Assembly (NCBI GenBank): GCA_964414015.1
Contig: CAYPUE010000001.1
Coordinates: 8,893 to 72,892 of the forward strand
Origin: an uncultured Gammaproteobacteria bacterium
Lineage (GTDB): Bacteria > Patescibacteriota > Microgenomatia > Levybacterales > UBA12049
Direction of reading: 5' to 3'
DNA length: 64,000 bases
Shown: positions 18,472-58,664 of the stretch, in pieces
Position numbering within the stretch: position 1 is the first letter of the stretch
Layout: each line of letters starts with the position of its first letter
Notes under the pieces: model-generated
Seen by the model: only the letters and a program-made list of their open reading frames with translations
Told to the model about the DNA's origin: nothing
The model's database searches: none
Program-made: the position numbers and the translations under genes

Positions 18472-19025
18472 AGAGCTTTTCGCACGCTATCCCACGAGAA
18501 CAAGGATCCATCAGTAAGCTTTACTTGAGCTTCTTCGTAGGAAATTCTGCCTTCCTCTTTTGGGTTGTAAAGCGCAGTTGGAAAATTAAGAAGGATAGCT
18601 GGCTCTTTCGAGACCACCATAAAACCATGAAGGGTTTTTTTGGGAATCAATAGAACGTAGGGATTATCATCAGCTTTCATATTGAAAAGGTTTAGTAATC
18701 CAAAAGTTGGAGAATCTTCACGATTATCTGCTATGGCCACAACTATTGATCCCTGGATAACCAAAAATCTGTCTTCCTGCACTGTAGGATGATAATGCCA
18801 GACTTTTTCATCCCTTGCGATTCCGCTTGGAGTAATAGAGTAATACTGCATTGCAAACTCTTTACTCTTACCGTAAATATCAGGCCAGTCTGTCCTAAGG
18901 GTCTCAACCAATATTCCCGATTTATCCCTATTAATTTTTAAAGGATGCATAATAACATCCTTTACAAGCGTAAAATTGTTTTTATTTGAAATGTTAATAA
19001 ACTCCATTACAAGATATGATATCAA
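18468..19025 (-). CDS. Cupin-fold NDP-sugar epimerase/isomerase (RmlC/dTDP-4-dehydrorhamnose 3,5-epimerase-like)
   Basis: 185 aa. DEKVWHYHPTVQEDRFLVIQGSIVVAIADNREDSPTFG matches the RmlC-family core (R/HxH..Q..k.v.v..G.v.dV.vD.R..SpTfG). Confidence 0.5.
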   Translation of the reverse strand: MISYLVMEFINISNKNNFTLVKDVIMHPLKINRDKSGILVETLRTDWPDIYGKSKEFAMQYYSITPSGIARDEKVWHYHPTVQEDRFLVIQGSIVVAIADNREDSPTFGLLNLFNMKADDNPYVLLIPKKTLHGFMVVSKEPAILLNFPTALYNPKEEGRISYEEAQVKLTDGSLFSWDSVRKAL

Positions 19026-20092
19026 ATTGTCGTATCTATTGCTATCTTTTTATATACATTAAATGTTTCTTCTGCAGTTTTTTTCCAAGAGAATTTTTTT
19101 GCCTGAATTAAACCTTTTTTAGAATATTCTTCCCTAAGCTTTTTGTTTTCGTACATTGTCCTAATGCCTTCGCCAATACTGTCAGGATCGTAAGCATTAA
19201 CATAGAAAACCGTATTGCTTGCAATTTCCGGTATTGACCCCTCTTTCGTAGTAACTACCGGACAACCGCAACTCATTGCCTCAAGAATCGGAAGACCAAA
19301 TCCTTCGTATAGAGAGGGCATTACAAAAACTGTAGCTAAATTGTAAATCATAACCAAATCGCTAGTAGGTATAAATCCTAAACGTAGAATATTTTTATCT
19401 TTTTCTACCAACTTCTCTACTCTAGTGCGATCTTGATTCCATAAATTATCTTTGTCAAAATCAAAATTCGTAAGAGCTTTTCCAACCATAACAAGAGGCA
19501 CCTTAATCCTCTTAACCGCTTCTATTAACCTTGGTAAATTTTTATTCCAAGTTACATCTCCCACATAGAGCAAAAAATTCTCCGGAAGGGAATATTTTTT
19601 GCTAATTTTTAATTTTAAATTTTCAATTTTCAATCGCTTGAACGCCTCGCCCGCGGCTAAGTAGATAACGTGAATTTTGCGTTCCGGAATCCCAACGTAT
19701 TTAACAATGTCTTTTTTCGAAGAAAAAGAATCAGTTATTACTGCATCTGCGCTGCTCAAGGCGGCTTTTTGCAATTGCCATTTTAGCTCTCCTTTTATGC
19801 CTCTTGGAAAAAATTTCGGAAAAGCTAAAGGCGTTAAGTCATGAACTGTCACTATTGTTTTATATTTTTTGTAAATTGGCAGTGTTAGAAAAAACGGCTC
19901 AAAATAAGGATAATGGACTAAATCCGTATCTTTGGGTAAATTTTCACCTCGAGTAAAAAAAGTATACTGATTGTCCGGATAATATTGCAATAAGGATTTT
20001 TTAAGATTTTCTATATAAAATCCTGTACCCCGAACTCTATGTGCAAGATTACGAGCGTCAATCAGCGGGGATACATCAACAGCTATGTTCAT
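19022..20092 (-). CDS. GT4 family glycosyltransferase
   Basis: 356 aa. C-terminal half FVMPSLYEGFGLPILEAMSCGCPVVTT is the canonical GT4 motif. Confidence 0.75.
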   Translation of the reverse strand: MNIAVDVSPLIDARNLAHRVRGTGFYIENLKKSLLQYYPDNQYTFFTRGENLPKDTDLVHYPYFEPFFLTLPIYKKYKTIVTVHDLTPLAFPKFFPRGIKGELKWQLQKAALSSADAVITDSFSSKKDIVKYVGIPERKIHVIYLAAGEAFKRLKIENLKLKISKKYSLPENFLLYVGDVTWNKNLPRLIEAVKRIKVPLVMVGKALTNFDFDKDNLWNQDRTRVEKLVEKDKNILRLGFIPTSDLVMIYNLATVFVMPSLYEGFGLPILEAMSCGCPVVTTKEGSIPEIASNTVFYVNAYDPDSIGEGIRTMYENKKLREEYSKKGLIQAKKFSWKKTAEETFNVYKKIAIDTTI

Positions 20093-24183: not shown

Positions 24184-25818
24184 TTATTGGTTTTTAACCA
24201 AAAGACTTTTGATTAATAAAAACAAACTTAATAATATAAAAATAAAGGATGAAATTGTACCAATCGTCCTTGGGCTCGTAGCTCCTAACTCTATTTTTAT
24301 ATCATGATTTCCTGCATTAAGATGGAAAGAAAAAAGCCCATTAGGAGTTACATTTATCTTAACTTTTTTGCCATCTACAAATACTGACCATCCTGGAAAA
24401 TATGCTGTATTTACTCCAATTTCCGAATCATCCTTAGCTTCGATCTTAAAATCATAAAAACTGCTAATAATTCTTTTGGGTGTTATAACGCCATCTCCTT
24501 TTAGAAAAAATGCTTTATCTTTTTGTTTCTTTAAATCTCCATTAAAAAATATTGTATTGAATGCATTTCCCGGGCTATTGGTTCCATCTATAAAATTCGA
24601 TCGCGTTATGTAGTAAGAATCTTCTCTATAAAGGTAGTAAGCTGGTTTTGAATATTCAATCCCCAAAAGAAAAGTAAAAGTAATCATAATGATTGCCAAA
24701 ACCCATGACTTCCAATAAAAAATAATACTCCCTGCCAGAAATGAAGTGATTAATATAACAAGACTTAAGAGTCTCCATGGAAACTGAAAATAATTTACAA
24801 GCGGAATATTAACCCAAATCGGATAGGAAATTTTTTGCATTAAAAATAAAAGAATTAGAAGGGATATTATAAAAAAGAAAATTATCCTGCATTCTGTTTT
24901 TTTCTTTATAAAAAATATACAACCTACACAAAAACTTATAAATGTTGCGAAAATATTAGCTATCCCTATTTGGACAGACATCTCCGTAGCTATATTGGTT
25001 CCAAAAAATCCGGATCCCCATGAAGGAATAATTAATTGATATAAATCCGGAAAATTAACATTCAAACTGAAAACTTCCAATCCAACGACATATTGCCTCT
25101 CAAATAGAGCAGGTATCCAAAAAATTGAAGATAATCCAAGACTAATTAGTATTACGTAGAAAGTATTAAGTATTAAGTATCTGCGATTATTGCTTATGCA
25201 TATTAGAAAAATAATGTAAGAAATAGAAAAAGCAAAAAACATTAAAGCTAAGATATTATGAGAAAATATAATTAACGCCAAAAATATACTTGAAATTGCA
25301 ATATATTTACTTTGTCTTTCTTTAAAGAATTTCGTAATCGACCAGAGAAAAGCCGGAAAAAAAGCAAGAGCCCACACCTCTCCCACAGAACCCCTAATGT
25401 ATGCATCCACGAAATGGTAAGGCGAAAATGAATAAAATACTGAAGATACTATGCCTCCTAATGTACCCCAAAATTCTTTGCTCCAAAGATAAAAAAATAC
25501 TCCGCCGATTATGAAGGCTAAGAACATCTCAAGCTTAAAAGAGTCTATGAAGCTTATACCAAAAATGTGAAAAAAGGAAGCGATGTAGTTTGGTAAGGGA
25601 TAAACGTAGTTAAAAAGCGGCACCCCATATCCATTATTTAAGTCCGGAGCCCAACGGGGATACCAATTGCCATCTCTTAGAACCTTATCGAATTCATAAA
25701 ATCTTACAATATGGTATTCTCCATCATGCGTAGGAGATAATCCCTTATGGATAAGTGAAAAACCAGCAATAATGGAAAATATAATAACTAAAAGTATTGG
25801 AAGAAATTTTTTCGCCAT
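24184..25818 (-). CDS. Polytopic membrane protein of the HDG-PRW-GYGYP family (YfhO-related GT-C-like) with C-terminal YFPGW beta-domain plus TM anchor
   Basis: 544 aa. N-terminal loop SPTHDGEYHIVRF...NWYPRWAPDLNNGYGVPLFNYVYPLPNY. More than 10 TM. C-terminus NTAYFPGWSVFVDGKKV...AGNHDIKIE then a terminal TM helix. Paralogs at 29242, 55651, 57144, 62826. Confidence 0.55.
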   Translation of the reverse strand: MAKKFLPILLVIIFSIIAGFSLIHKGLSPTHDGEYHIVRFYEFDKVLRDGNWYPRWAPDLNNGYGVPLFNYVYPLPNYIASFFHIFGISFIDSFKLEMFLAFIIGGVFFYLWSKEFWGTLGGIVSSVFYSFSPYHFVDAYIRGSVGEVWALAFFPAFLWSITKFFKERQSKYIAISSIFLALIIFSHNILALMFFAFSISYIIFLICISNNRRYLILNTFYVILISLGLSSIFWIPALFERQYVVGLEVFSLNVNFPDLYQLIIPSWGSGFFGTNIATEMSVQIGIANIFATFISFCVGCIFFIKKKTECRIIFFFIISLLILLFLMQKISYPIWVNIPLVNYFQFPWRLLSLVILITSFLAGSIIFYWKSWVLAIIMITFTFLLGIEYSKPAYYLYREDSYYITRSNFIDGTNSPGNAFNTIFFNGDLKKQKDKAFFLKGDGVITPKRIISSFYDFKIEAKDDSEIGVNTAYFPGWSVFVDGKKVKINVTPNGLFSFHLNAGNHDIKIELGATSPRTIGTISSFIFILLSLFLLIKSLLVKNQ

Positions 25819-26930
25819 AATTTTTCTTTTATGGATAAGTACAAAAGAGCCGCAATGGATGGAATAAAGGTTACCAAAGCTTTAATCAAAGGCGTAGGTC
25901 CGAAATAAGTACCAAGAAGCATGAATGGAATATAACGTAATAATAAACCAAAAGAGCAGGAGATGGAAAGATATAATAAAATTTTATTTTTTGGAACAAG
26001 AAATGAAAATGGAAGAAACCATATGGCATACCATGGGTAAATTTCTTCCCTAATTGGCGACAGTAAAAACGCCATTATCATTAATATTGCCGAATAAGAA
26101 AATACATTGTCCCAATTAATCTCCATTTTCCTTACTCTCCTTATGACAACATATATAAAAATAGGAAGTAAAAATAAAGTTGCATATTTTATAAGCATAG
26201 ATAATATTATAAAAATAATTGCCCAAAATATTCTCTTTTTCATTAATAAATAAAAAGCCAAGAGCGCAAAAAACATCATAACTATATCATTATGTCCGCT
26301 AATTAAAGTTTCTATAATTACTAAAGGATTTAGAACGAATAGCAGAAGAGTAGCAAAATTTTTTGATATTTTCCAAATGATAGATATTGTACCTAGATAA
26401 AAAAGGAGTATAAAAAGTTTAAAATTTAAAAGCGTTAGCAGAAAATTCCCAAAACCCAATACATAAGGTATTCCTGTTAATAATATCCAAACCGGACCGT
26501 ATAAAGCGGTTTTATTAGCAGCGTGCATAAAGAAAAGTAATGGATCTTTTGTAAACTCAATAGGCATAATTATATAAGGGTTTTCGTGGTAAAAAAATAA
26601 AACCTTTGAAGTTGCAACATAGTTAAAAATATCATAGGAAAGCATTGCTGGATAAGACAGAAGTAATAATGCAATTGTAAGAATTAAGTATAATTTAAGA
26701 TCTTTAAAACCAAATAATCCCATTTTGCTTAATCTAACTATCAAAAAATAAAATATAAAAAATATTAAAATGAGCAATATATATAAAACGGTTGTTAATT
26801 GGCGGTTACTAAAAGCAAAACCAGAATAAAGCCTATGAAGATATAAAAAATTTGGGTCTATAAATAAATATGAGAAAATTAAAAAACAAAATAAAAAAAA
26901 CGCATAAAGAAAGATAAAAACGGATTTCAT
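25788..26930 (-). CDS. Integral membrane protein (about 11 TM), putative GT-C-like glycosyltransferase
   Basis: 380 aa, highly hydrophobic throughout. Sits in a glycosylation context. No specific family assigned. Confidence 0.35.
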   Translation of the reverse strand: MKSVFIFLYAFFLFCFLIFSYLFIDPNFLYLHRLYSGFAFSNRQLTTVLYILLILIFFIFYFLIVRLSKMGLFGFKDLKLYLILTIALLLLSYPAMLSYDIFNYVATSKVLFFYHENPYIIMPIEFTKDPLLFFMHAANKTALYGPVWILLTGIPYVLGFGNFLLTLLNFKLFILLFYLGTISIIWKISKNFATLLLFVLNPLVIIETLISGHNDIVMMFFALLAFYLLMKKRIFWAIIFIILSMLIKYATLFLLPIFIYVVIRRVRKMEINWDNVFSYSAILMIMAFLLSPIREEIYPWYAIWFLPFSFLVPKNKILLYLSISCSFGLLLRYIPFMLLGTYFGPTPLIKALVTFIPSIAALLYLSIKEKLWRKNFFQYF

Positions 26931-27460
26931 AAATTGTTTTTCCTAATCTCAATCGATTTTAAAATTGCTTCTTTTAAATTTAATATTGTCGGAGGAGATT
27001 TTTCAGGCTTCCATTCAAACTTTTCCGGAACTTCACTTTTTAAAAGTTCGAGAACTTCTATGTGTTTTAATGCTGCATTTTGAAGAATATTCTTTTTATT
27101 CGCAATATTTTTATCTTCTCTCTCTGCTAACTTCAGATATAAAGGGGCTTGTGAAAAGTAGCTATCTGATTTAATTAATGCCTTATAACCCAACAAAAAC
27201 TGCTTGTATTCAAAGAGGGTTTTTGCTTCTACCAGATATTTATTTGATTGTTTTAGGTTATATTCAAACTGTCCGAAACTACCAAAGTGCCAATATCTCA
27301 TCATTTTCTCCCATACAAGGTGAAGTTTATACGAAGCACTTCCGGGCATTGAGGATGGATAAGGCAAAACGTAATTAGACTGCGCAAAAATAGCTGGAGG
27401 AAAAACTACGATCAACAAATAAATAATTATTGCGAATGCAAAAAGCTTTCCATTCGTCAT
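26927..27460 (-). CDS. Secreted hypothetical protein (signal peptide), paralog of 8990..9526
   Basis: The ORF track extends to 27502. The likely start is the ATG at 27460 (MTNGKLFAFAIIIYLLIVVFPPAIFA signal peptide), which overlaps the galE TGA stop as ATGA. Shared motifs LPYP...YKLHLV and LKHIEVLELLKSEVPEK. Confidence 0.5.
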   Translation of the reverse strand: MTNGKLFAFAIIIYLLIVVFPPAIFAQSNYVLPYPSSMPGSASYKLHLVWEKMMRYWHFGSFGQFEYNLKQSNKYLVEAKTLFEYKQFLLGYKALIKSDSYFSQAPLYLKLAEREDKNIANKKNILQNAALKHIEVLELLKSEVPEKFEWKPEKSPPTILNLKEAILKSIEIRKNNL

Positions 27461-28455
27461 TTTGAGTTTTGAGTTTTGAGATTTGAGATTTGTTTGTGCC
27501 ATTTAAAGGCTGTCTTAACAATTGTTTCAATATCTGAATATTGAGGCTTAAATCCTAATTCCGTATTAATTGCCGTAGGGTCAGCTACTAATCTTTCTGC
27601 ATCTCCGGGTCTTCTTGGTGCAATTTTCATTTTAAAATCAATGCCGCTTACTTTTTTTACCATATCTATAACCTCTTTATTAGAATATCCTTTTCCCGTA
27701 CCTGCATTATAGAAAAATCCTCCTTTATTTTTTTGTAATTTCTCAAGAGCCAACACGTGTGCTTCTGCTAAATCCAACACGTGAATATAATCCCTAATGC
27801 AGGTACCATCCTTAGTTTTGTAATCATCCCCATATAATATAAATTCTGATTTATCTATTGCAGATATTATTGCATTTGGAATTATATGAGTCTCGGGATT
27901 ATGATTTTCCCCCATTTTACCGTCCAAAGAGGCACCTGCGGCATTAAAATAGCGAAGACTGACAAAGCTTAATCCATAAATTTCTCTATACCAAGAAAGG
28001 GTTTTTTCAACCATTAGCTTACTTTCTCCGTATGGATTTGTAGGATTTTTTGGATGAATTTCCGGAATTGGAACCTGTATTGGGTTTCCGTATACTCCGG
28101 CTGTTGATGAAAAAATGATTGGAATGGGATTCTTGCTTTTTGACGCCTCATCTATCATGTTTAATGCTGCTAATAAATTATTCTGAAAGTAAATGTAAGG
28201 ATTTTCCATGGACTCTGCCATTGAGATATAACCTGCAAAATGAATAATTCCCTCAAATTCATTTTTCAAAAATAGGCTGGAAACAAAATCTCTTTTATTC
28301 AAATCGCCAATAATAAATTCTGCTCTGCTATCAACTGAATCTTTGCGGCCCCTGGAAAGATTATCAACGACCACGACTTGATAGCCTTTTTCCAAAAGTA
28401 GAGTCGTCATGAAACTGCCAATATAGCCTGCCCCTCCCGTTACTAAAATCTTCAT
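27457..28455 (-). CDS. galE: UDP-glucose 4-epimerase
   Basis: 332 aa. MKILVTGGAGYIGSFMTTLLLEKGYQVVVVDNLSRG. YGESKLMVE (YxxxK). Full-length GalE-like extended SDR. Confidence 0.7.
   Translation of the reverse strand: MKILVTGGAGYIGSFMTTLLLEKGYQVVVVDNLSRGRKDSVDSRAEFIIGDLNKRDFVSSLFLKNEFEGIIHFAGYISMAESMENPYIYFQNNLLAALNMIDEASKSKNPIPIIFSSTAGVYGNPIQVPIPEIHPKNPTNPYGESKLMVEKTLSWYREIYGLSFVSLRYFNAAGASLDGKMGENHNPETHIIPNAIISAIDKSEFILYGDDYKTKDGTCIRDYIHVLDLAEAHVLALEKLQKNKGGFFYNAGTGKGYSNKEVIDMVKKVSGIDFKMKIAPRRPGDAERLVADPTAINTELGFKPQYSDIETIVKTAFKWHKQISNLKTQNSK
27460..27494 (-). repeat. Heptanucleotide tandem repeat (ttttgag x4 plus one degenerate copy) at the galE 3' end and the downstream gene start
   Basis: Direct reading: ttttgag ttttgag ttttgag atttgag atttgtt. 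It encodes the galE C-terminal tail QISNLKTQNSK and precedes the ATGA start/stop overlap. Confidence 0.7.
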
Positions 28456-28464
28456 AGGCTAATT

Positions 28465-29229
28465 TTATTCTTTGATGTATTTTAGATATGAAACCGGAAA
28501 TCTTAAAGCCGAGAAAAAAGCAAATACGAATCCTTGCCAACTGTCCATAAACCCCTTATGCCGTATATATGATGTAAAAAACCACCATGCTGGAAGTATC
28601 AAGATATATTTTAGCATAGTTAAGGAGTCTTTCCCTAGTTTTTTGTCTTCATATTGTTTAGAGATGAAATCCGTATATCTTTTGAATCGCGTTAAATAAC
28701 GAGAGAAAGTTGGGTCAGCCACATGAATAAGCGGATTAGCTAGATACCCTATCTTTCCTTCGACAACCGCTTGTTCATGAACGTCTTTTTGGGGAAGTTT
28801 TCCTTTCCCTCTCTTATATAGCCTTAAAGTGTAATCGGGATACGCCCCTCCTTTCATTAAAAATCTTCCTAAAAACCAATTTTTTCTAGGAATCCAATAG
28901 CCATTCACATCGTCATTTTTGCTATTTGAGATTTGATTTTTGATTTCACTGCGAAGCGATGGCGTAACTCGTTCATCCGCATCAAGCTGCAAAACCCAAT
29001 CTTTAGATGCCATATCTATTGCTTTCTGTTTATTAATATGAAAATTAGGCTTATTAGTAGTTATTTTTACTTTAGCGCCAAATTTTCTGGCAATTTCCAC
29101 AGTTTTATCAGCAGAAGTTCCATCAACTACGATAATTTCATCCGCTATATCTTTTACGCTTTCTAAAGCAGCTCCAAGGTTTTCCTCCTCGTTAAAAGTA
29201 GCCAGAACAACAGAAAGAGTTTTACTCAT
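28465..29229 (-). CDS. GT2 family glycosyltransferase with conserved C-terminal GYWIPRKN domain
   Basis: 254 aa. LSVVLATFNEEENL, IIVVDGTSADKT, QLDADE. Low-complexity linker, then NGYWIPRKNWFLGRF...YPDYTLRLYKRGKG...VHEQ. Paralogs at 50886 and 52576. Confidence 0.7.
   Translation of the reverse strand: MSKTLSVVLATFNEEENLGAALESVKDIADEIIVVDGTSADKTVEIARKFGAKVKITTNKPNFHINKQKAIDMASKDWVLQLDADERVTPSLRSEIKNQISNSKNDDVNGYWIPRKNWFLGRFLMKGGAYPDYTLRLYKRGKGKLPQKDVHEQAVVEGKIGYLANPLIHVADPTFSRYLTRFKRYTDFISKQYEDKKLGKDSLTMLKYILILPAWWFFTSYIRHKGFMDSWQGFVFAFFSALRFPVSYLKYIKE
28917..28944 (-). repeat. Heptanucleotide tandem repeat (ttttgct atttgag atttgat ttttgat) inside the GT2 linker
   Basis: Read directly from the sequence. 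Encodes SEIKNQISNSKNDD on the minus strand. Same 7-mer family as 27460..27494 and 51356..51383. Confidence 0.6.
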
Positions 29230-29241
29230 AAGATGATAATA

Positions 29242-30894
29242 CTAGGAAAGCTTTGGTTTTACAAACTTAAAAACCAAAAGAGAAACGGTAACAAAAAGCG
29301 CAGCGAAAGAAATAATGTCTGATATCAATCTTAGCTTAGTTTCTTTATATTCTGCTTCAACCAGATAATTTCCTTTAGTTAAGTTAAAAGTCATAATCCC
29401 TCTATACTGCATATTCTGAAATTCTAGATAAAGAGGCTTTCCATTTGCTTTTATTTCCCAGCCTGGAAAATACAGGGTATTTTCTCCAAACAGAGCATTC
29501 TTATTAACTTGTACTTGATATTTATGATAAGTTGATTTCCTATCAAGTTCTTTTATTTTTGCGTCTCCGTCAATTACTTCAAGGTATGCTTTTGGCCTTT
29601 TTTCCATAAATCTTACAGACCATATGGGAGCGCTCTCCCCTGTATCCGTAGTGCTATCGTAGATGCCGCTATAAAAACTCTCTTCTTTTTGCAAAAATCC
29701 ATTTGCATGCCAATAATCTTTATTTACAAATAATAGAACTGCAACAAATATTAATAACGCTGCCTTTTTATATTTACTTGAAACTACGGATAATAAAATT
29801 CCTCCCATCAATGCGCTTAAAAAGACTGTAACGGAAAGAAACCTCCAGGGAAACTGAAACTTTTGAAGAGTTGTAATTGTCTGCCAAATTGGATTGGAAG
29901 AAGAGGTCATTAGGAATAGTGTTGCCCAAAAAATAATAAAGCTTCCCAAACATATAATCCATAGCTTATTTCTTTTTTTATATAAATAATACGCTGCAAT
30001 AATACTACCAACTACACCTATCCAGTGAATAATTCCTATTTGCTTGCTAAGAGCTATTGTCCCTCCATAACTCCATGGTGAAAGGAAAAAATCCTTCCAC
30101 GCTACAAAACTCCTTGTGTATTCCCCTCCTCCCGTAACAATGTCCCTAAGGGTATACTTTCCTTCTATCAATGCTGGTATCCAGAAGAAAGCGGATAACC
30201 CAAACCCAAGAAGTATTAAGTAAAAAGAGTTAAGTATAAAGTATTTTTTATTGGAGTACTGAAAAATTAGATAAAAAATGTATATCAGTATCAAGGGCAG
30301 AAACATAAGTGTTATTGCATTATGAGACAGGATAAGACCGGCCAATGAAAGCGATCCTCCCAATATCTGCCAATAGGAAAAATTTTTCGCAAGTTTAGTC
30401 AGGAAATAAAAGATAAGGGGCGGGAAAATAAATGCAACATGCTCACCAATAGCCCCACGGACATATAAATCAACAAATCTATAGGGAGCAATTATATAAA
30501 GCGCGCTTGCAAAAAATGCTGCTTTATCATCATTTAGTAATTCTTTAATAAAAAGGTACATTACTAGACCGCTTAGAACAAATGATGTACCAAAAACCAA
30601 CTTTACACTATCAACTAATGTAAATCCAAAAAAATGAAATAATGAAGCTAAATATGAGGGTAAAGGATAAAGAAATTCCAATATGGGGTGCCCGTATCCC
30701 CAGTTAAGATTACCCGCCCACCTTGGAATAATATTTCCTTCTTTTAGATTTTGATAAAAATTGGCAATTCTTGCAACATGATCTTGTCCATCATGAGTAA
30801 TCGGCAATCCCGAATAGAAAAAATCCAAAAGAGGAATAACTGATAATATGGTGAGTAAAAATAAAATTACTAATTTAGATTTAAAAATTTTCAC
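29242..30894 (-). CDS. HDG-PRW-GYGYP family polytopic membrane protein (YfhO-related GT-C-like) with C-terminal YFPGW domain
   Basis: 550 aa. PITHDGQDHVARI...NIIPRWAGNLNWGYGHPILEFLYPLPSY. C-terminus NTLYFPGWEIKANGKPL...KGNYLVEAEY plus a terminal TM. Confidence 0.55.
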   Translation of the reverse strand: MKIFKSKLVILFLLTILSVIPLLDFFYSGLPITHDGQDHVARIANFYQNLKEGNIIPRWAGNLNWGYGHPILEFLYPLPSYLASLFHFFGFTLVDSVKLVFGTSFVLSGLVMYLFIKELLNDDKAAFFASALYIIAPYRFVDLYVRGAIGEHVAFIFPPLIFYFLTKLAKNFSYWQILGGSLSLAGLILSHNAITLMFLPLILIYIFYLIFQYSNKKYFILNSFYLILLGFGLSAFFWIPALIEGKYTLRDIVTGGGEYTRSFVAWKDFFLSPWSYGGTIALSKQIGIIHWIGVVGSIIAAYYLYKKRNKLWIICLGSFIIFWATLFLMTSSSNPIWQTITTLQKFQFPWRFLSVTVFLSALMGGILLSVVSSKYKKAALLIFVAVLLFVNKDYWHANGFLQKEESFYSGIYDSTTDTGESAPIWSVRFMEKRPKAYLEVIDGDAKIKELDRKSTYHKYQVQVNKNALFGENTLYFPGWEIKANGKPLYLEFQNMQYRGIMTFNLTKGNYLVEAEYKETKLRLISDIISFAALFVTVSLLVFKFVKPKLS

Positions 30895-50885: not shown

Positions 50886-51659
50886 TTATTTCCTATCTCT
50901 TATTTCTTTCTGTTGTAGTTCCCACAATCTCGCATAGGTAATAAAGATGCTGAAAGATTGATATATACTCTCTATAATCCCCACAGTTCCTGCCTTCCAT
51001 CCTCCTTGCTTAACATAGGAATCAAAAAATGCAGTTGACATCACGCGCGGAAACCTCCACCATGAGATCTTGGGATGGTTAGCGGCTAATCGAAGCTTCG
51101 CTTCAACTTCTGACCACTCAATGGTTTTATTAAGCATCGCCGTAAGATCTCTATGTGAGTAATGCAACAGGGATCCATCCAATATTCCAACTTTGCCCTC
51201 AAAAATTGGGCTTTCATGAAGTTTGCCTTTCCAGCCTTTCAATTTATCTTTTCTAAAAAGCCTTTCTATTTTTTCTATAAAAGGCCACTCATTCTTTCTT
51301 GAAGAACCCAAATAAAAATTTTTCCTTTTAATTTTAAACGCAACTGCATCGTCATATTTGATATTTGATATTTTATATTTGATATTGCGAACAAGCTCGC
51401 TTGTGACGCGTTCATCTACATCTACATACAACACCCATTCGCTAGTTGATTTTTCTAAACCAAAATTTCTAAGAGCAGAAAAATTATCGGATTCCAATAT
51501 GTAAACTTTTGCACCCATATTTTTTGCTATATCCAAAGTTTTGTCCTTAGAACCTGCGTCAATCACGATAATTTCATCACAGAACGCAATCGAATTTAAG
51601 CAATCTTTAATTAAATTTTCTCCGTCTTTAACTATTACAATCGCAGAAATTTTACTCAT
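50886..51659 (-). CDS. GT2 family glycosyltransferase with conserved C-terminal domain (paralog of 28465 and 52576)
   Basis: 257 aa. ISAIVIVKDGENL, IIVIDAGSKDKT, VDVDE. Linker RNIKYKISNIKYDD encoded by heptanucleotide repeats. Confidence 0.7.
   Translation of the reverse strand: MSKISAIVIVKDGENLIKDCLNSIAFCDEIIVIDAGSKDKTLDIAKNMGAKVYILESDNFSALRNFGLEKSTSEWVLYVDVDERVTSELVRNIKYKISNIKYDDAVAFKIKRKNFYLGSSRKNEWPFIEKIERLFRKDKLKGWKGKLHESPIFEGKVGILDGSLLHYSHRDLTAMLNKTIEWSEVEAKLRLAANHPKISWWRFPRVMSTAFFDSYVKQGGWKAGTVGIIESIYQSFSIFITYARLWELQQKEIRDRK
51356..51383 (-). repeat. Heptanucleotide tandem repeat (atttgat atttgat attttat atttgat) inside the GT2 linker
   Basis: Read directly. Four copies with one mismatch. 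Encodes KYKISNIKY on the minus strand. Homologous position to 28917..28944. Confidence 0.7.
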
Positions 51660-52573
51660 ACCCTAAAACTTCCTTTCCCGAACTTACCCGTATAAAAGTC
51701 CCAAATTCCTCTTTTCTGCCAATATCTTCCTTTTAAAAACAATGATAATGATTCCTTGATAAGAGCTAGTTTTGATTTAAATGGAGCGTATTTTATTCCA
51801 AAGAGCATTCTATTGCGGGTTATATAATAATCCTGCAAATTTGACCCAGAGCCACCAGCTGACGCTGCATTTTTATGCCAAATTATTGCTTTTGGTGAAT
51901 AAATAATTTTGTAGCCTGCTTTCTTGGCTTTTTGACTAAAATCATTGTCTTCGTAATATAAAAAATATTTTTCATTAAACAGACCTATCTTTTTAAATAC
52001 TTCGCTTTTAACTAACATGCAGCAACCGGTAGCAAATTCCGTTTCTTCTTCTTTGTCGTATTGTCCTTTATCAACCTCATCAACACCTTTATGACGACCG
52101 ATTATATTTGCCCAATCCATTGTTCCGCCGGCATACCAAAAAACTTTTCCTTGATCTTCTTTTTTATACCTGTTTTTATGGAATTCATATCCCTTCGCGA
52201 AATAAATCTTTGGAACTACAATGCCGATATTTTCGTCTTTTTCCGCTGATTTTAAAAATTCTGCGATTAAATTCTTATCAACAATCGTATCGTTATTCAT
52301 AATAACAATAAAGCCTGCTCCATTTTCCAACGCATATTTTATCCCCATATTATTACCCTTAGAATAACCCAGATTTTCTTTATTGGCTATGATGGCAGCA
52401 TTTGGAAATTGTTTTTTAACAGCTGCTAATGAGCCATCTGTTGAGGCATTATCCACTACTATAATCTCAATCCTTGTATCTTTAGGAAGTAAGATATTTC
52501 CTATCGATTCTAGACACTCTAACGTATCTTCTTTGCCGTTATAGTTTAATATAACAAATGAAACTTTTTGCAT
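51656..52573 (-). CDS. GT2 family glycosyltransferase (rhamnosyl/hexosyltransferase-like)
   Basis: 305 aa. VSFVILNYNGKEDTLECL, IEIIVVDNASTDGS, IMNNDTIVD. Confidence 0.7.
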   Translation of the reverse strand: MQKVSFVILNYNGKEDTLECLESIGNILLPKDTRIEIIVVDNASTDGSLAAVKKQFPNAAIIANKENLGYSKGNNMGIKYALENGAGFIVIMNNDTIVDKNLIAEFLKSAEKDENIGIVVPKIYFAKGYEFHKNRYKKEDQGKVFWYAGGTMDWANIIGRHKGVDEVDKGQYDKEEETEFATGCCMLVKSEVFKKIGLFNEKYFLYYEDNDFSQKAKKAGYKIIYSPKAIIWHKNAASAGGSGSNLQDYYITRNRMLFGIKYAPFKSKLALIKESLSLFLKGRYWQKRGIWDFYTGKFGKGSFRV

Positions 52574-52575
52574 CT

Positions 52576-53514
52576 TTACCAGCCAAACCTATCAATGAGG
52601 ATAACTAATATTTTCTTAAACGGATTCTTAACTTGTTTTATGCGCTCTTTTGATGACCAAAATTGTATTTGTTGATGTGATTTGTCAAGTTCACTTCTTA
52701 CCTCATCCAAAAGCTTATCACTTGTAGGATCGCTGAATTTCTGCATCTCCCATATATTTGCAAAAACGATAAAATGATAAAAAGCCATTAGGATTGAAAG
52801 CATTAAACCATGAAAACCATCCTTATAGCCTTCTCTTGCGAAAAACCTGCTTAAAAATTCTCCAAGAGGAAACCTTATGGCATCACGCCAGTTAAAAACG
52901 TATCCGTTAGCAATCCTTTGTTCTGCTTCATTTGGCGCGTAAATATTTGCCATTTTAGATAAAAATTGCCTAATTGAATCATAGTTATAATGAACGATAT
53001 TATTATTTAAATAAGCTGTTTCCCCTTCTACTTTTATCATCTCGTGAACATGTTTTTCTTCAAATCTGCCTTTACTGTTTTTGAACAATCTAAGCTGATG
53101 GTCCGGATACCAACCCGTATGCTGCATCCATTTGCCGAAAATTATATTTTTTCTAGGAATCCAGTAGCCATTGATTGGTCTTTGGCCGTTGGTCTTTGGC
53201 CGTTGGTCTAGAATACTGACGATTTCTTTTTGTAGCTCGGGGGTCGCTCTTTCATCCGAATCCAAGTTTAAAATCCAATCATTCTTGGTTTTTGAAAAAC
53301 CAAAATTTTTGTTTATATTGAGCATTCTGTTATTTGGCCTAACAAAAACTTTCGATGTATATTTCTTTGCGATGTCTAAAGTTCTATCTGTTGATGAGTT
53401 ATCAACGAAAATAATCTCCTGTGCCCATTTAACAGATTCTAAGCAGTCCTTTATTTTATCTTCGCTATTGAAGGCTGATATAACAACCGAAAGTTTAACC
53501 ATATTATTTCGCAA
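52576..53514 (-). CDS. GT2 family glycosyltransferase with conserved C-terminal GYWIPRKN domain
   Basis: 312 aa. LSVVISAFNSEDKI, IIFVDNSSTDRT, NLDSDE. Linker DQRPKTNGQRPING then GYWIPRKNIIFGKWMQHTGWYPDHQLRLFKNSKGRFEEKHVHE. Confidence 0.7.
   Translation of the reverse strand: MRNNMVKLSVVISAFNSEDKIKDCLESVKWAQEIIFVDNSSTDRTLDIAKKYTSKVFVRPNNRMLNINKNFGFSKTKNDWILNLDSDERATPELQKEIVSILDQRPKTNGQRPINGYWIPRKNIIFGKWMQHTGWYPDHQLRLFKNSKGRFEEKHVHEMIKVEGETAYLNNNIVHYNYDSIRQFLSKMANIYAPNEAEQRIANGYVFNWRDAIRFPLGEFLSRFFAREGYKDGFHGLMLSILMAFYHFIVFANIWEMQKFSDPTSDKLLDEVRSELDKSHQQIQFWSSKERIKQVKNPFKKILVILIDRFGW
53177..53209 (-). repeat. 14-nt tandem repeat (ggtctttggccgtt x2.4) in the GT2 linker
   Basis: Read directly: ggtctttggccgtt ggtctttggccgtt ggtcta. 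It encodes QRPKTNGQRPIN, with the unit read in two different frames. The unit length is not a multiple of 3. Confidence 0.7.
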
Positions 53515-55679: not shown

Positions 55680-57147
55680 AAGAGATTATACCAATAATCA
55701 AAGCTAAAATGCCAATAAAAGAAGCTATATTTGAAGTCTTTTCCAGCGTAGTTTCTTTAAACGGAATAGGGTCTTTCGAGACTTCTTTTTCCGATTTGGG
55801 TTTTGTAAAATTAGAAGGTAAATATTCGTCCGAAATTTTGGACGCTGTCCATTTAAGAGCTTTCTCATTTGTAAAATCGCTTGCAGTTGACGGAAAAATT
55901 GTTTGAGGAACGAAAAACTTGAGATTAAAAAATAAAAGAAAAAATACCAGCAGAAATGCTACGAGATAAGGTTTTATTTTGAATTCAGATGAAAGAGGAA
56001 TAATTGCTCCGGAAAGTATCGAAGAAAAAAATGAAGCCATGATTAAAAATCTCCACGGATATTGAAAAAAAGACATAACTGAAATTGTTTCCCATAAAAA
56101 TTTCGAGATGTTAAGCATTAGAAAAACAGCAATAATAAAACCCGCAAGGCTGAAAATAGTTAAATAATATATACCCGCCTTGCGGCGAGGCAGGTTATTG
56201 AAGTATTTGCGTTTGGCTCTTAGATAAATCAAAATGGGAATTATGGATAATACAGAAAGAATGTGCAACTTGCCTATCATAAAAGACATTCCGTCAATAC
56301 AGTTTTTTGCGGAACCGCCAAATCCCCAAGGACTTGTCCAGAGTTGCTCAAAACAAACAAAATGATCTCGGAAATCCGCTCCTCCGCCGATTTGCGATAA
56401 AACATTAGTATATTTCATTTCCGAAAGCGCCGGCAGCCAATAGAAAGCGGAAAGAACTAAACCCAAGATGACAGTAAGTAGCAAGTAGCATGTAGTACGT
56501 AGACGAGTTTCTTTTCTTGATAAAATAATAAACAACAAGCAGACAATAAGCAAAAACGGCGTTACCATCAGAGCAGTTAAATTGTGAGAAAGAATAACTC
56601 CGGCAAATCCCAAAGCGCCAACAGCTACATATTTCCATTTGGGATTTTTATAAACTTTGATTAATCCGTAAAAAGACAGAGGAATAAAAGCATAAGCCCA
56701 AAATTCTGCCACATCTCCACGTACATAGATATCAACAGCATGGTATGGAGCATAAGCGTAAAATAAACCTGAAACTATCCCGCCCAATTCTCCGAAAAAA
56801 TTCCTGGCTAAAAGATACATAAAAACCCCACTCAAAATAACTCCCAATGCCATCATTATTTTTGTAGCTAAAAGTGCATCAAATCCCAATAATGTAAATA
56901 TTCCGCCAGCGTAATAAGCTAAAGGAGCGTAAAAATTAAAAATCGGATATCCATATCCATAACCTAAGTCCGGAACCCACCTAACGGGAAACATTCCGCT
57001 TTGGAGCATTTTTCCCATCTCAAAAACTCTGGCAACTTGAGTATTGTCATGCATTGGGAAAAACCCGGAAACAAATAAAGGCTTTATCGCCCAGAAAGAT
57101 AAAACCAAAACTAAAATCAATCTATAATGTTTTTTAAGAAAATTCAT
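55651..57147 (-). CDS. HDG-PRW-GYGYP family polytopic membrane protein (YfhO-related GT-C-like), C-terminal YFPGW domain absent
   Basis: 498 aa. FFPMHDNTQVARVFE...GMFPVRWVPDLGYGYGYPIFNFYAPLAYY. Ends with a TM anchor but lacks the YFPGW block. Confidence 0.5.
   Translation of the reverse strand: MNFLKKHYRLILVLVLSFWAIKPLFVSGFFPMHDNTQVARVFEMGKMLQSGMFPVRWVPDLGYGYGYPIFNFYAPLAYYAGGIFTLLGFDALLATKIMMALGVILSGVFMYLLARNFFGELGGIVSGLFYAYAPYHAVDIYVRGDVAEFWAYAFIPLSFYGLIKVYKNPKWKYVAVGALGFAGVILSHNLTALMVTPFLLIVCLLFIILSRKETRLRTTCYLLLTVILGLVLSAFYWLPALSEMKYTNVLSQIGGGADFRDHFVCFEQLWTSPWGFGGSAKNCIDGMSFMIGKLHILSVLSIIPILIYLRAKRKYFNNLPRRKAGIYYLTIFSLAGFIIAVFLMLNISKFLWETISVMSFFQYPWRFLIMASFFSSILSGAIIPLSSEFKIKPYLVAFLLVFFLLFFNLKFFVPQTIFPSTASDFTNEKALKWTASKISDEYLPSNFTKPKSEKEVSKDPIPFKETTLEKTSNIASFIGILALIIGIISFANRKLRYE
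56474..56501 (-). repeat. Degenerate heptanucleotide-period repeat (gtaagta gcaagta gcatgta gtacgta) inside the membrane-protein CDS
   Basis: Read directly. 7-nt period, g.a.gta consensus. Encodes LRTTCYLLL. Homologous position to 58038..58069 in the adjacent paralog. Confidence 0.4.
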
Positions 57148-58664
57148 ATCTTTTTTTTAATTACCGCAAACAAAAGCGCGCCAAAACTTATTATTGAAAT
57201 TAAATCCGCTGCCAATCTGATCGGTGTTTCCTCAAATGCAACCTTAACGTTATTCTGTCCCTTATCAAGATTTAATCTTATTAATCCCTGCTGATTATTA
57301 TAATCTATATTTGCTCTTTTCCTGTTGACAACCGCCATCCATCCCGGAAAATAAACCGTATTCACCTGAATTGTTCTTGGCGTTGGTAAATAAACATCAA
57401 ATGAGATTTGTTTCGGACTAATAATAGTTGTGTTAATTTTTTCCTGACCGTTTAAATTTTCAACTTTGGCGTTTGGTCTTGCAGATGGAAGAGCTTTAAC
57501 CCATTTTGGCATATATTCATTTTTTATTGTTGTTGTTGCCTCATTGGTTGCGTAAAATGTATCTCTTTTATCGAAAAACAAAGAAGGGCTGATAAATTGT
57601 CTGGCAGAAAAACCCAACAGCAATAATAGAATTACTGCCATAATAATTTTTAAATTTTTTGCCAATAATGAAAGCGACACTGCTGCCAAAAATGCCCCAC
57701 ATGAAATTGTCAAAGATAAAAAACGGAAAGGAAATTGAATAAAAGAAACCGGCAGAAAATTCCATAAAGGTTTACTTAATTCTACGGAAAAAAATAAAGA
57801 CAAAATACCGATAATAAAAAATAGAACTGTTAATCTGTGTTTGGCAAGCGCAATTTTATTAGTAAGAAAAAGAATTATTGTTAAAAAGAAAACAAAAATG
57901 ATCGGTATGCCAATTAAACTGCTATTTACGAAGTAATTGCTCCATTCTGAAACAGCAGTTTGGGAAAAAACCGTATATTGCAAATCCGCTATGGCCGGAA
58001 GCCAGAAAAAGGAGGAAACGCCTAAACCCAAAGTCACAGTAAATAGTAAATAGTAGATAGTAGATAGTTTTCTGAAAATAAAGTAAACAATAATAACAGG
58101 CAAAAACAAAACTGCCAGAGTATTGTGGGAAAGAATTAAAAGAGCAATGCCTATACTTGTCCAAAAAAGACTTTTACGCTCAATTTGCCAAAAGATAAAT
58201 GGGACGATTGCCAAAGCCAAGACTTCCCCGACAGATCCTCGTTTGTAAATATCATATAAGTGATATGGGACATAAAGATAAAAAAGTGCGCCGACAAATG
58301 ATTCAAGTTTTCCGAAAAACTTTCTTAGCCAAAGATATGCGAAAACCAAAGAGCCGGCCATGGACAAACCGAAAATTATTTTGATTGAATTGACAAAACC
58401 GAAACCCAAAAGTTTCGGTACCTCTGCCAAATACATGAAACCGGGATATAAAAAATTTGCCACCGGATAACCGTACTCGTAATTAAGTCTGGATAAAAAG
58501 CGCACTGGAAATTCTCCGGCTCTTAAAGCCTGATGAAAAGCAGAAAATCTGATAATCATCCATTCTCCGTCATCGCTTTGAAAAAATCCAGGATGAAAAA
58601 GAGAAGCAATAGATGGAATTGCAAAAATAATTAAGATAAAAATTAAAAATAAATTCTTCTTCAT
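57144..58664 (-). CDS. HDG-PRW-GYGYP family polytopic membrane protein (YfhO-related GT-C-like) with C-terminal YFPGW domain
   Basis: 506 aa. GFFQSDDGEWMIIRF...GEFPVRFLSRLNYEYGYPVANFLYPGFMY. C-terminus NTVYFPGWMAVVNRKRA...KGQNNVKVAF plus a TM. Confidence 0.55.
   Translation of the reverse strand: MKKNLFLIFILIIFAIPSIASLFHPGFFQSDDGEWMIIRFSAFHQALRAGEFPVRFLSRLNYEYGYPVANFLYPGFMYLAEVPKLLGFGFVNSIKIIFGLSMAGSLVFAYLWLRKFFGKLESFVGALFYLYVPYHLYDIYKRGSVGEVLALAIVPFIFWQIERKSLFWTSIGIALLILSHNTLAVLFLPVIIVYFIFRKLSTIYYLLFTVTLGLGVSSFFWLPAIADLQYTVFSQTAVSEWSNYFVNSSLIGIPIIFVFFLTIILFLTNKIALAKHRLTVLFFIIGILSLFFSVELSKPLWNFLPVSFIQFPFRFLSLTISCGAFLAAVSLSLLAKNLKIIMAVILLLLLGFSARQFISPSLFFDKRDTFYATNEATTTIKNEYMPKWVKALPSARPNAKVENLNGQEKINTTIISPKQISFDVYLPTPRTIQVNTVYFPGWMAVVNRKRANIDYNNQQGLIRLNLDKGQNNVKVAFEETPIRLAADLISIISFGALLFAVIKKKI
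58038..58069 (-). repeat. Heptanucleotide tandem repeat (agtaaat agtaaat agtagat agtagat) inside the membrane-protein CDS
   Basis: Read directly. Two perfect copies of each of two units. Encodes STIYYLLFT, which is TM-helix residues. Confidence 0.7.

Follow-up and report, generated by a model that had tools for sequence, protein, structure and literature searches.

A heptanucleotide repeat in a glycosyltransferase gene of Levybacteria is one of many in-frame arrays of about 33 bases

In a 64-kb stretch of DNA from an uncultured bacterium of the Levybacterales (GenBank assembly GCA_964414015.1, contig CAYPUE010000001.1; 64,000 nt, hereafter the window), the gene for a family-2 glycosyltransferase, GT2a, contains a tandem repeat of a seven-nucleotide unit. 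We found that this repeat is real and that it is one of many in-frame heptamer arrays of about 33 bases in genes of Levybacteria, which belong to the Candidate Phyla Radiation (CPR). It is probably a heptanucleotide simple-sequence repeat (SSR) of the slippage type, homogenised at the DNA level and tolerated where the protein forms the end of a helix and the following loop. The gene and the repeat lie as follows.

50886..51659, minus strand: GT2a, the host gene, encoding a 257-aa family-2 glycosyltransferase of the GT-A fold with a DVDE (DxD) motif at residues 80-83
51354..51386, minus strand: heptanucleotide array of 4.7 units (33 nt), coding AATATCA AATATAA AATATCA AATATCA AATAT
51374, minus strand: lone interruption of the array, with a coding A for the C of the perfect orthologous arrays

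The original prediction, made from the window sequence, described four copies of atttgat with one mismatch at positions 51356-51383. The forward strand reads atttgat atttgat attttat atttgat at these positions and continues with a partial att, and the sequence, Tandem Repeats Finder (TRF) and shuffling agree on the repeat. TRF reported a period of 7 for 51354-51386, with 4.7 copies, 92% matches and a score of 59, the top score among the period-7 rows in the window. With up to 3 mismatches allowed, the 28-mer has a single match in the window, and none of 100 dinucleotide-preserving shuffles contains it. The array is thus an SSR in the sense of at least three head-to-tail 7-nt copies beyond chance. 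It encodes residues N92-Y102 of GT2a, NIKYKISNIKY, which include the predicted peptide KYKISNIKY. The single interruption at 51374, a T on the forward strand, changes the coding triplet CAA to AAA and replaces Gln96 of the orthologue consensus NIKYQISNIKY (codons of loci L015, L017 and L018) by Lys. The same base is present in two strain variants, L201 and L202. Chance and codon bias as sources of the repeat are ruled out by the shuffles and by the synonymous-codon test described below. An assembly artefact is likewise ruled out: contig names such as 'k141_' suggest large k-mers, well above the arrays in length, the arrays occur in metagenome-assembled genomes (MAGs) of many independent studies with differing styles of contig naming, and they preserve the reading frame.

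Orthologues of GT2a were sampled as the best 120 homologous proteins and as 80 loci from species-representative genomes. The peptide (N/S)IKYQ(I/V)S(N/S)IK is common among the best 120 homologues, in which the linker that holds it is usually 15 residues long (range 11-41). Three loci, L015, L017 and L018, encode proteins that are 61-65% identical to GT2a, yet they carry perfect (AATATCA)n arrays of 33-37 nt. Array codons are identical in 11 of 11 columns among these three loci, which corresponds to 33 of 33 pairwise comparisons, or to 60 of 60 when the window is included. Outside the array, pairwise codon identity at degenerate sites with the same amino acid is 0.47-0.48 in the same lineages, and the codons immediately flanking the three arrays differ. 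Given a background of 0.19-0.29 per column for all codons being identical, a run of 10-11 consecutive columns has a probability of p ~1e-6 to 1e-7. Judged from these codons, the repeat structure is evidently kept at the DNA level and not merely through the encoded peptide. Orthologues with imperfect arrays (L002, L006 and L008) encode the same peptide with varied synonymous codons. The peptide is thus under ordinary protein-level constraint, to which perfect arrays add a lock at the DNA level. Array perfection does not track relatedness: the arrays of the nearest relatives of GT2a, at 78-82% identity, are more degenerate than those of the distant loci L015, L017 and L018.

Two further GT2 genes of the window are paralogues of GT2a that carry arrays of their own.

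28465..29229, minus strand: GT2b, GT2 paralogue of 254 aa, 29% identical to GT2a
28915..28946, minus strand: degenerate heptanucleotide array in GT2b, coding ...ATCAAAA ATCAAAT CTCAAAT AGCAAAA... and encoding EIKNQISNSKN (TRF period 7, 4.6 copies, 76% matches)
52576..53514, minus strand: GT2c, GT2 paralogue of 312 aa, 30% identical to GT2a and 33% identical to GT2b
53175..53209, minus strand: GT2c linker array, coding AGACCAA CGGCCAA AGACCAA CGGCCAA AGACCAA and encoding QRPKTNGQRP (perfect 14-nt period x2.5, that is, five heptamers; TRF score 70, 100% matches)

All three paralogues bear their arrays at the homologous linker. In the three-paralogue alignment the arrays of GT2a and GT2b occupy the same columns, directly behind the motif D.DER(V/A)T..L...I and ahead of the conserved (I/P)RKN strand, as had been predicted for the repeat in 28465..29229. 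The prediction that both loci use the unit atttgat was also correct, since 28924-28944 reads ATTTGAG ATTTGAT TTTTGAT. With up to 1 mismatch, the 14-mer ATTTGATATTTGAT matches only the GT2a and GT2b loci (5 matches vs 0.24 expected). An orthologue of GT2b, at L106, has a perfect 35-nt (ATATCAA)x5 array at its linker.

The units of the GT2a arrays change between orthologues while register and length remain the same: besides AATATCA we found AGTATCA/AGTATGA (L031) and units of the AGTATTA type. Among 198 sequences, residue 1 of the peptide covaries with residue 8 (N/N in 26, S/S in 29, mixed in 15; Fisher p=3e-6) and with residue 6, which is I or V (p=2e-6). This is the pattern expected when a change at one position of the unit spreads to every copy. 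GT2c orthologues with more than 80% protein identity can likewise have different arrays, a perfect (AGACCAA)x4.7 in L001 and one of the AATATCA type in L002, and more distant orthologues carry (ATCAGCC)x4 (L015), TCAACTC/TCAATTA (L004) or, in others, xGAATCA units. The array of GT2c in the window, where AGACCAA and CGGCCAA alternate, contains one double substitution twice at a spacing of 14 nt. Linkers were extracted by regular expression; of 81 GT2a linkers 2 escaped it, as did about half of those of GT2c, and counts for GT2c are therefore minimum values. An orthologue of the middle GT2 gene of the window (51656..52573) has a perfect (TCAAATC)x4.7 array at L004:1720-1752, where the segment after the DNAS motif measures 46 aa vs 39 aa in orthologues that lack an array; the additional 7 aa equal three units. 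The idea that the arrays are 7-aa (3-unit) insertions holds at this site and fails at the GT2a linker, which is 15 aa with or without an array.

The extent of such arrays was determined by a tandem-repeat scan based on the lag-match fraction, which covered the window, its Markov shuffles and 428 kb of related Levybacteria loci. At a threshold of at least 4.5 copies and at least 85% lag match, period 7 gave 4 arrays in the window, 0.0 in the shuffles and 29 in the 428 kb, and periods 5, 6 and 8-15 gave 0. At the looser threshold of at least 4 copies and at least 80% lag match, the numbers for period 7 were 7, 0.2 and 51, respectively, and periods 6 and 8-15 gave 0-1. A control region, 50 kb of Escherichia coli O-antigen and colanic-acid genes, had 0 period-7 arrays at the looser threshold. 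The window and the 80 loci together contain 33 arrays with many different units. Array length peaks at 31-34 nt, 21 of the 33 measure 4.4-4.9 units, and many are perfect and exactly 33 nt long. Long open reading frames (ORFs) contain 25 of the 33, and all 25 are in frame. The other 8 lie where the GT2a stop meets the start of a downstream YfhO gene, and several of their units have ATG, TGA or TAA:

L004, 3253-3285: GT2a stop to YfhO start
L005, 3254-3283: GT2a stop to YfhO start
L019, 3246-3284: GT2a stop to YfhO start
L022, 2856-2881: GT2a stop to YfhO start
L028, 3245-3276: GT2a stop to YfhO start
L049, 3238-3269: GT2a stop to YfhO start
L055, 3232-3257: GT2a stop to YfhO start
L061, 3238-3262: GT2a stop to YfhO start

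Junction units such as AAAAATG place start or stop signals every 7 nt in all three frames.

A metagenome scan with (AATATCA)x3 returned at least 120 stretches. Among the matches listed, only 3 are GT2 linkers, one of them the GT2b orthologue at L106, and the remainder lie in many unrelated ORFs; when extended, 68 of 123 measure 29-34 nt, and this mode contrasts with the monotonic decay expected of chance runs. The same contigs hold, again among the matches listed, 86 other period-7 arrays with other units vs 5-23 arrays for any other period. From their sequences, the array-bearing proteins resemble MiaA, TsaD, AroA, PurH, IscS, a UXS-type epimerase, GT2 and GT4. Among the matches listed, the ORF is on the AATATCA strand in every case, a bias that we consider trivial, as the reverse complement TGATATT contains the stop codon TGA. 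A mobile (AATATCA)n cassette came into question because of the many stretches with this unit, some of them in GC-rich contigs, and was set aside: the contigs hold the 86 arrays with other units, and neighbouring arrays pass gradually into each other. (AATATCA)n arrays of ~31 nt stand in frame in mostly housekeeping-type proteins at L083, L084, L093, L112, L131 and L200, one AroA-like gene contains two arrays, and a few arrays among the metagenome loci L081-L200 are in GC-rich contigs, for example L130 (GC 0.65).

Other genes of the window show the same period. At 27460-27492, (TTTTGAG)x4.7 with 96% matches lies at the extreme C-terminal tail (KQISNLKTQNSK, followed by the stop codon) of an NAD-dependent epimerase/dehydratase gene (27457..28455) and overlaps the listed start of ORF 26927..27502. 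An array of ~4.4 copies at 19603-19634, in the minus-strand gene 19022..20092, encodes RLKIENLKLKIS and lies between the Glyco_transf_4 (55-144) and Glycos_transf_1 (170-327) domains of a GT4 glycosyltransferase, which is another linker position. Four PTPS_related membrane-protein paralogues have period-7 arrays at 25148-25180, 30211-30244, 56476-56495 and 58038-58068, apparently in the same transmembrane segment (Y.ILN.FY.IL / YYLLFTV), and thus repeat the homologous-site pattern of the GT2 paralogues.

The location of the focal repeat in the protein was obtained from an AlphaFold model of GT2a built from 121 sequences, with a mean predicted local distance difference test score (pLDDT) of 93.8. 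In the model the DxD strand spans residues 83-85; a helix (87-98), a loop (99-104) and a further strand (105-115) come after it, so that the repeat encodes the second half of the post-DxD helix, towards its C terminus, and the next loop. The repeat blocks are among the less confident parts of the model (pLDDT 86-90). Asp80 and Asp82 are invariant in the 121 sequences, and Ile93, inside the repeat, is nearly invariant among homologues. GT2a scored 55.6 bits against Pfam PF00535 (gathering cut-off 23.3, E=8e-15), and Foldseek matched the model to the GT2 structures SunS/ThuS, TarS and SpsA with E down to 1e-14, SunS and ThuS being the nearest. The proteins closest to GT2a carry the annotation Candidatus Levybacteria or Patescibacteria, and one homologue, P0001, is 100% identical to the protein of the window.

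Taken together, the observations suggest that misalignment in steps of 7 nt during replication makes the arrays and maintains their uniformity; it would take the form of slippage or of misaligned repair that leaves the net length unchanged. A heptamer is read in all three frames along the array, and a change that spreads through it would alter amino acids somewhere. In this way nominally synonymous sites would be coupled to protein-level selection, which would lock perfect arrays and leave interrupted ones free. The arrays that survive in ORFs would be those with stop-free units and frame-preserving lengths, at places where the protein tolerates them. The copy in the window, which is interrupted and has the same length as those of its relatives, looks like a stabilised or decaying one.

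Several points weigh against this explanation. The GT2a linker has 15 aa whether or not it holds an array, so simple expansion does not explain how the repeat arose there. No length polymorphism was found at the site, where active slippage should leave some, for example as in-frame 3-unit changes, and the MAG sequences are consensus sequences that hide minority length variants. The covariation tests on the array were computed without phylogenetic correction. For the sharp preference for ~33 nt and the restriction to period 7 we offer a description and not a mechanism. Finally, the perfect conservation of codons could reflect direct selection on the nucleotide sequence.

The unit shared by GT2a and GT2b had been ascribed to an inherited repeat-prone linker or to a recurrent slippage hotspot. 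Arrays at this site in GT2a, GT2b and GT2c, and in orthologues of other Levybacteria, speak for this pair of readings. The site is not special, however, as ~33-nt arrays of 7-nt units occur in many genes of the lineage, and the pair omits gene conversion over short tracts between paralogues, which L002 shows directly. The GT2c gene of L002 has 0.80-0.93 nucleotide identity to its orthologues along its length. Over ~25 codons at the linker (L002:~910-990) this identity falls to 0.42-0.52, and the same stretch is 0.85-0.92 identical to GT2b of the window, the level expected between orthologues. The stretch of ~75 nt, which comprises the post-DxD helix and the repeat, is by its identity profile a short gene-conversion tract between paralogues.

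Conversion might then be the sole origin of the unit common to 50886-51659 and 28465-29229, with neither ancestry nor independent slippage involved. The repeat is indeed the most similar 13-codon window of GT2a and GT2b (0.82 nucleotide identity vs 0.49 overall) and exceeds any catalytic motif in similarity, the tract in L002 covers exactly the linker segment, and the helix of GT2a orthologues comes in two haplotypes, SELAR and (T/P)SLRD, of which the latter is of the GT2b type. In the window, however, the similarity ends at the array and GAC GAT, and the upstream helix codons differ; conserved I-K codons (ATC AAA) could independently seed an AATATCA unit; and conversion explains neither the existence of the arrays nor their period. 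We consider conversion as the only source doubtful. Common descent, conversion between paralogues and reseeding from the I-K codons are all possible origins of the shared unit, and they are not mutually exclusive.

A different function would follow if GT2a were a contingency locus in which slipped-strand mispairing by one unit shifts the frame and turns this gene, for a surface-glycan glycosyltransferase, OFF and ON, as in pglE of Neisseria. The 7-nt unit is not divisible by 3, the ORF that contains it is a glycan-synthesis gene of the 64-kb glycosylation island, and deleting or adding one unit truncates GT2a to 125 or 104 residues. All three GT2 paralogues have arrays at the linker, heptanucleotide-repeat phase variation has a precedent in pglE (PMC7157529), and the homogenisation of units without net change in length could, in a version of this reading, be the footprint of repeated OFF/ON cycles at a constant in-frame length. 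The comparisons point the other way. All 80 genome orthologues are intact single-frame matches, with 0 of 80 frameshifted, and we found no copy-number polymorphism among the best 120 homologues, the 80 genome loci and the 2 strain variants; the copy-number differences between genomes that the original prediction had suggested looking for were thus sought and not found. None of the best 120 homologues has a unit-number variant of the IKYQISNIKY array, and arrays of the AATATCA unit in orthologues all encode the same 11 residues. L201 and L202, the two strain variants, come from independent samples and differ from the window at 1-2 of 774 nt (99.7-99.9% identity); through the repeat, interruption included, they match it fully. 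Among the metagenome (AATATCA)n matches listed, 1 of 31 arrays with long ORFs on both sides was frameshift-like and 30 were in frame. Similar arrays also occur in housekeeping-type genes (MiaA-, TsaD-, AroA-, PurH- and IscS-like), where an OFF state would be harmful, and the tract, which is interrupted, counts only 4.7 units, as compared with the 6-38 units for which variation or frameshifting was noted in Haemophilus influenzae (PMC2651432).

OFF products were searched for with the N-terminal 102 residues of GT2a, which yielded 4 short relatives, 3 of which stop mid-domain and look like fragments; the search for truncated relatives gave just contig-end fragments and one error-ridden contig. 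P0128 was tried as a linker frameshift allele and rejected: its contig has many frame errors along the gene, and we treated it as a sequencing error. Several frameshifts along the whole gene break the GT2a orthologue at L204:1501-2267 into three short ORFs, which most likely reflects a sequencing or assembly error in this JGI contig, unrelated to the repeat. Phase variation of GT2a is therefore unsupported, and a contingency locus of this kind is unlikely, although ON/OFF switching at low frequency is possible in principle.

Selection on the nucleotides themselves would be expected if the array were a putative nucleic-acid element, that is, a DNA or mRNA platform with 7-nt periodicity (for example, for cold-shock-domain proteins that each take one heptamer) or a signal for translational pausing or coupling. 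The perfect conservation of synonymous sites in the array next to diverging flanks, the preferred length of ~33 nt, the arrays at gene junctions with ATG and TGA in their units, and a published speculation that ties CspB to heptamer repeats (PMC4679880) are all compatible with such an element. Units that differ widely between sites and between close orthologues leave no apparent sequence-specific reader, and decayed arrays are seemingly tolerated in the window, L001 and L002, which makes this reading very unlikely. Least credible is an account without any DNA-level process, in which (N/S)IKYQ(I/V)S(N/S)IK is kept as an amphipathic helix end and AT-rich codons happen to give a 7-nt periodicity: the persistence of the peptide with varied codons where periodicity is weak (L006, L002, L008), the near-invariance of Ile93 and the confidently modelled helix plus loop would suit it, but repeat-making codons fill 10-11 of 10-11 columns in L015, L017, L018 and the window (~1e-6 to 1e-7), no protein-level reason links codons across reading frames, the unrelated peptides QRPKTKDQRP, SHQPSAIS and NSQLLIIN occupy the same GT2c site, and only period 7 is enriched.

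Nearly the whole window, with a G+C content of ~34%, is one co-oriented glycosylation island with families of paralogues. It contains at least 6 GT2 genes together with GT4 genes, 5 PMT_2-type, 5 PTPS_related and 3 YfhO membrane-protein paralogues, a DUF2079 protein and a flippase. Such an island is unusually dense for a presumably small CPR genome.

Tandem heptanucleotides of Calothrix PCC 7601 are known by the name STRR. Three of them are reported for this strain, as cited in PMC4692102, and, like these and the TAACTGA repeats of Beggiatoaceae and cyanobacteria (PMC4679880), the arrays described here consist of tandem heptamers in small sets (2-6 copies) dispersed over a genome. Stop codons in the unit restrict the orientation of TAACTGA sets relative to ORFs (PMC4679880), and the same logic applies to the AATATCA strand here. 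Those sets, however, have one favoured unit and lie mostly upstream of start codons, whereas the present arrays have many units and lie mostly inside ORFs; with 25 of 33 arrays in long ORFs and many units, they fall outside the class of intergenic arrays with one favoured unit per genome. According to the summaries of Mrazek et al. 2007 in PMC4679880 and PMC4692102, heptanucleotides are the most abundant class of long SSRs in many bacteria, for which a slippage hypothesis based on the polymerase footprint was put forward. As far as these summaries go, period 7 is over-represented among repeats of 5-11 nt in the class of Mrazek, Guo & Shah 2007, and it is the only period enriched here; on the same basis, that class is mostly intergenic and its intragenic units favour multiples of three, whereas the present arrays are in frame in ORFs of CPR bacteria with a mode of ~4.7 units.

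The GGGAATC arrays of Xanthomonas and the GGGGA(T/C)T arrays of Nostoc (PMC4692102) are similar in being heptamers of mostly about four units whose length and sequence vary between related species at each locus. They are G-rich, quadruplex-capable and intergenic (PMC4692102), whereas the arrays in Levybacteria are A/T-rich and coding, with many units. As in Neisseria meningitidis pglE (PMC7157529), the focal repeat is a 7-nt repeat in a glycosyltransferase ORF in which a one-unit change shifts the frame; isolates carry ON and OFF alleles of pglE (PMC7157529), whereas none were found for GT2a, whose tract is short and interrupted. The heptanucleotide SSRs of H. influenzae comprise TGAAAGA upstream of hmw1A/2A, AACAACC, and AATTTTG x14 inside hmw1A (PMC2651432). 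They resemble the focal repeat in their association with genes for surface structures and in that some of them, which cause frameshifts, are located in an ORF, and they differ in having 1-38 units that vary between strains (PMC2651432), whereas the focal array of 4.7 units was invariant in the comparisons made. In the literature searched, we found no paper that connects Patescibacteria or CPR with heptanucleotide repeats or with phase variation based on SSRs.

The focal repeat thus belongs to a known class of heptanucleotide SSRs, and this lineage's arrays, which are coding and in frame, restricted in length and evolving in concert, may be worth separate study. In itself the repeat is a small, stable feature of one glycosyltransferase, and its context is more interesting: the arrays are in-frame parts of genes, although their 7-nt unit breaks the frame when one copy is gained or lost. 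They provide a concrete test system for the old idea that the geometry of the polymerase favours 7-nt slippage, they show short DNA repeats creating and remodelling protein linkers, and they show how paralogues of 30% identity can swap segments through 33 nt of repeat in common. We tentatively raise the possibility, to which we give less credence than to slippage and homogenisation of the focal repeat, that a mutational regime in Levybacteria, and apparently in other metagenome lineages, writes stop-free in-frame arrays of ~33 nt into permissive parts of proteins and keeps them homogeneous with their synonymous sites locked; such arrays would serve as identity patches that drive conversion between otherwise diverged paralogues and could, in glycan genes, work as low-frequency frameshift switches too, and the focal repeat would be a decaying example. 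Were minority frameshift variants present in reads, the arrays would be the first repeat-based switches that we have found described for CPR bacteria. If such a mutational regime exists, CPR bacteria would have in it a so far undescribed source of evolving protein linkers and of mosaic paralogues.

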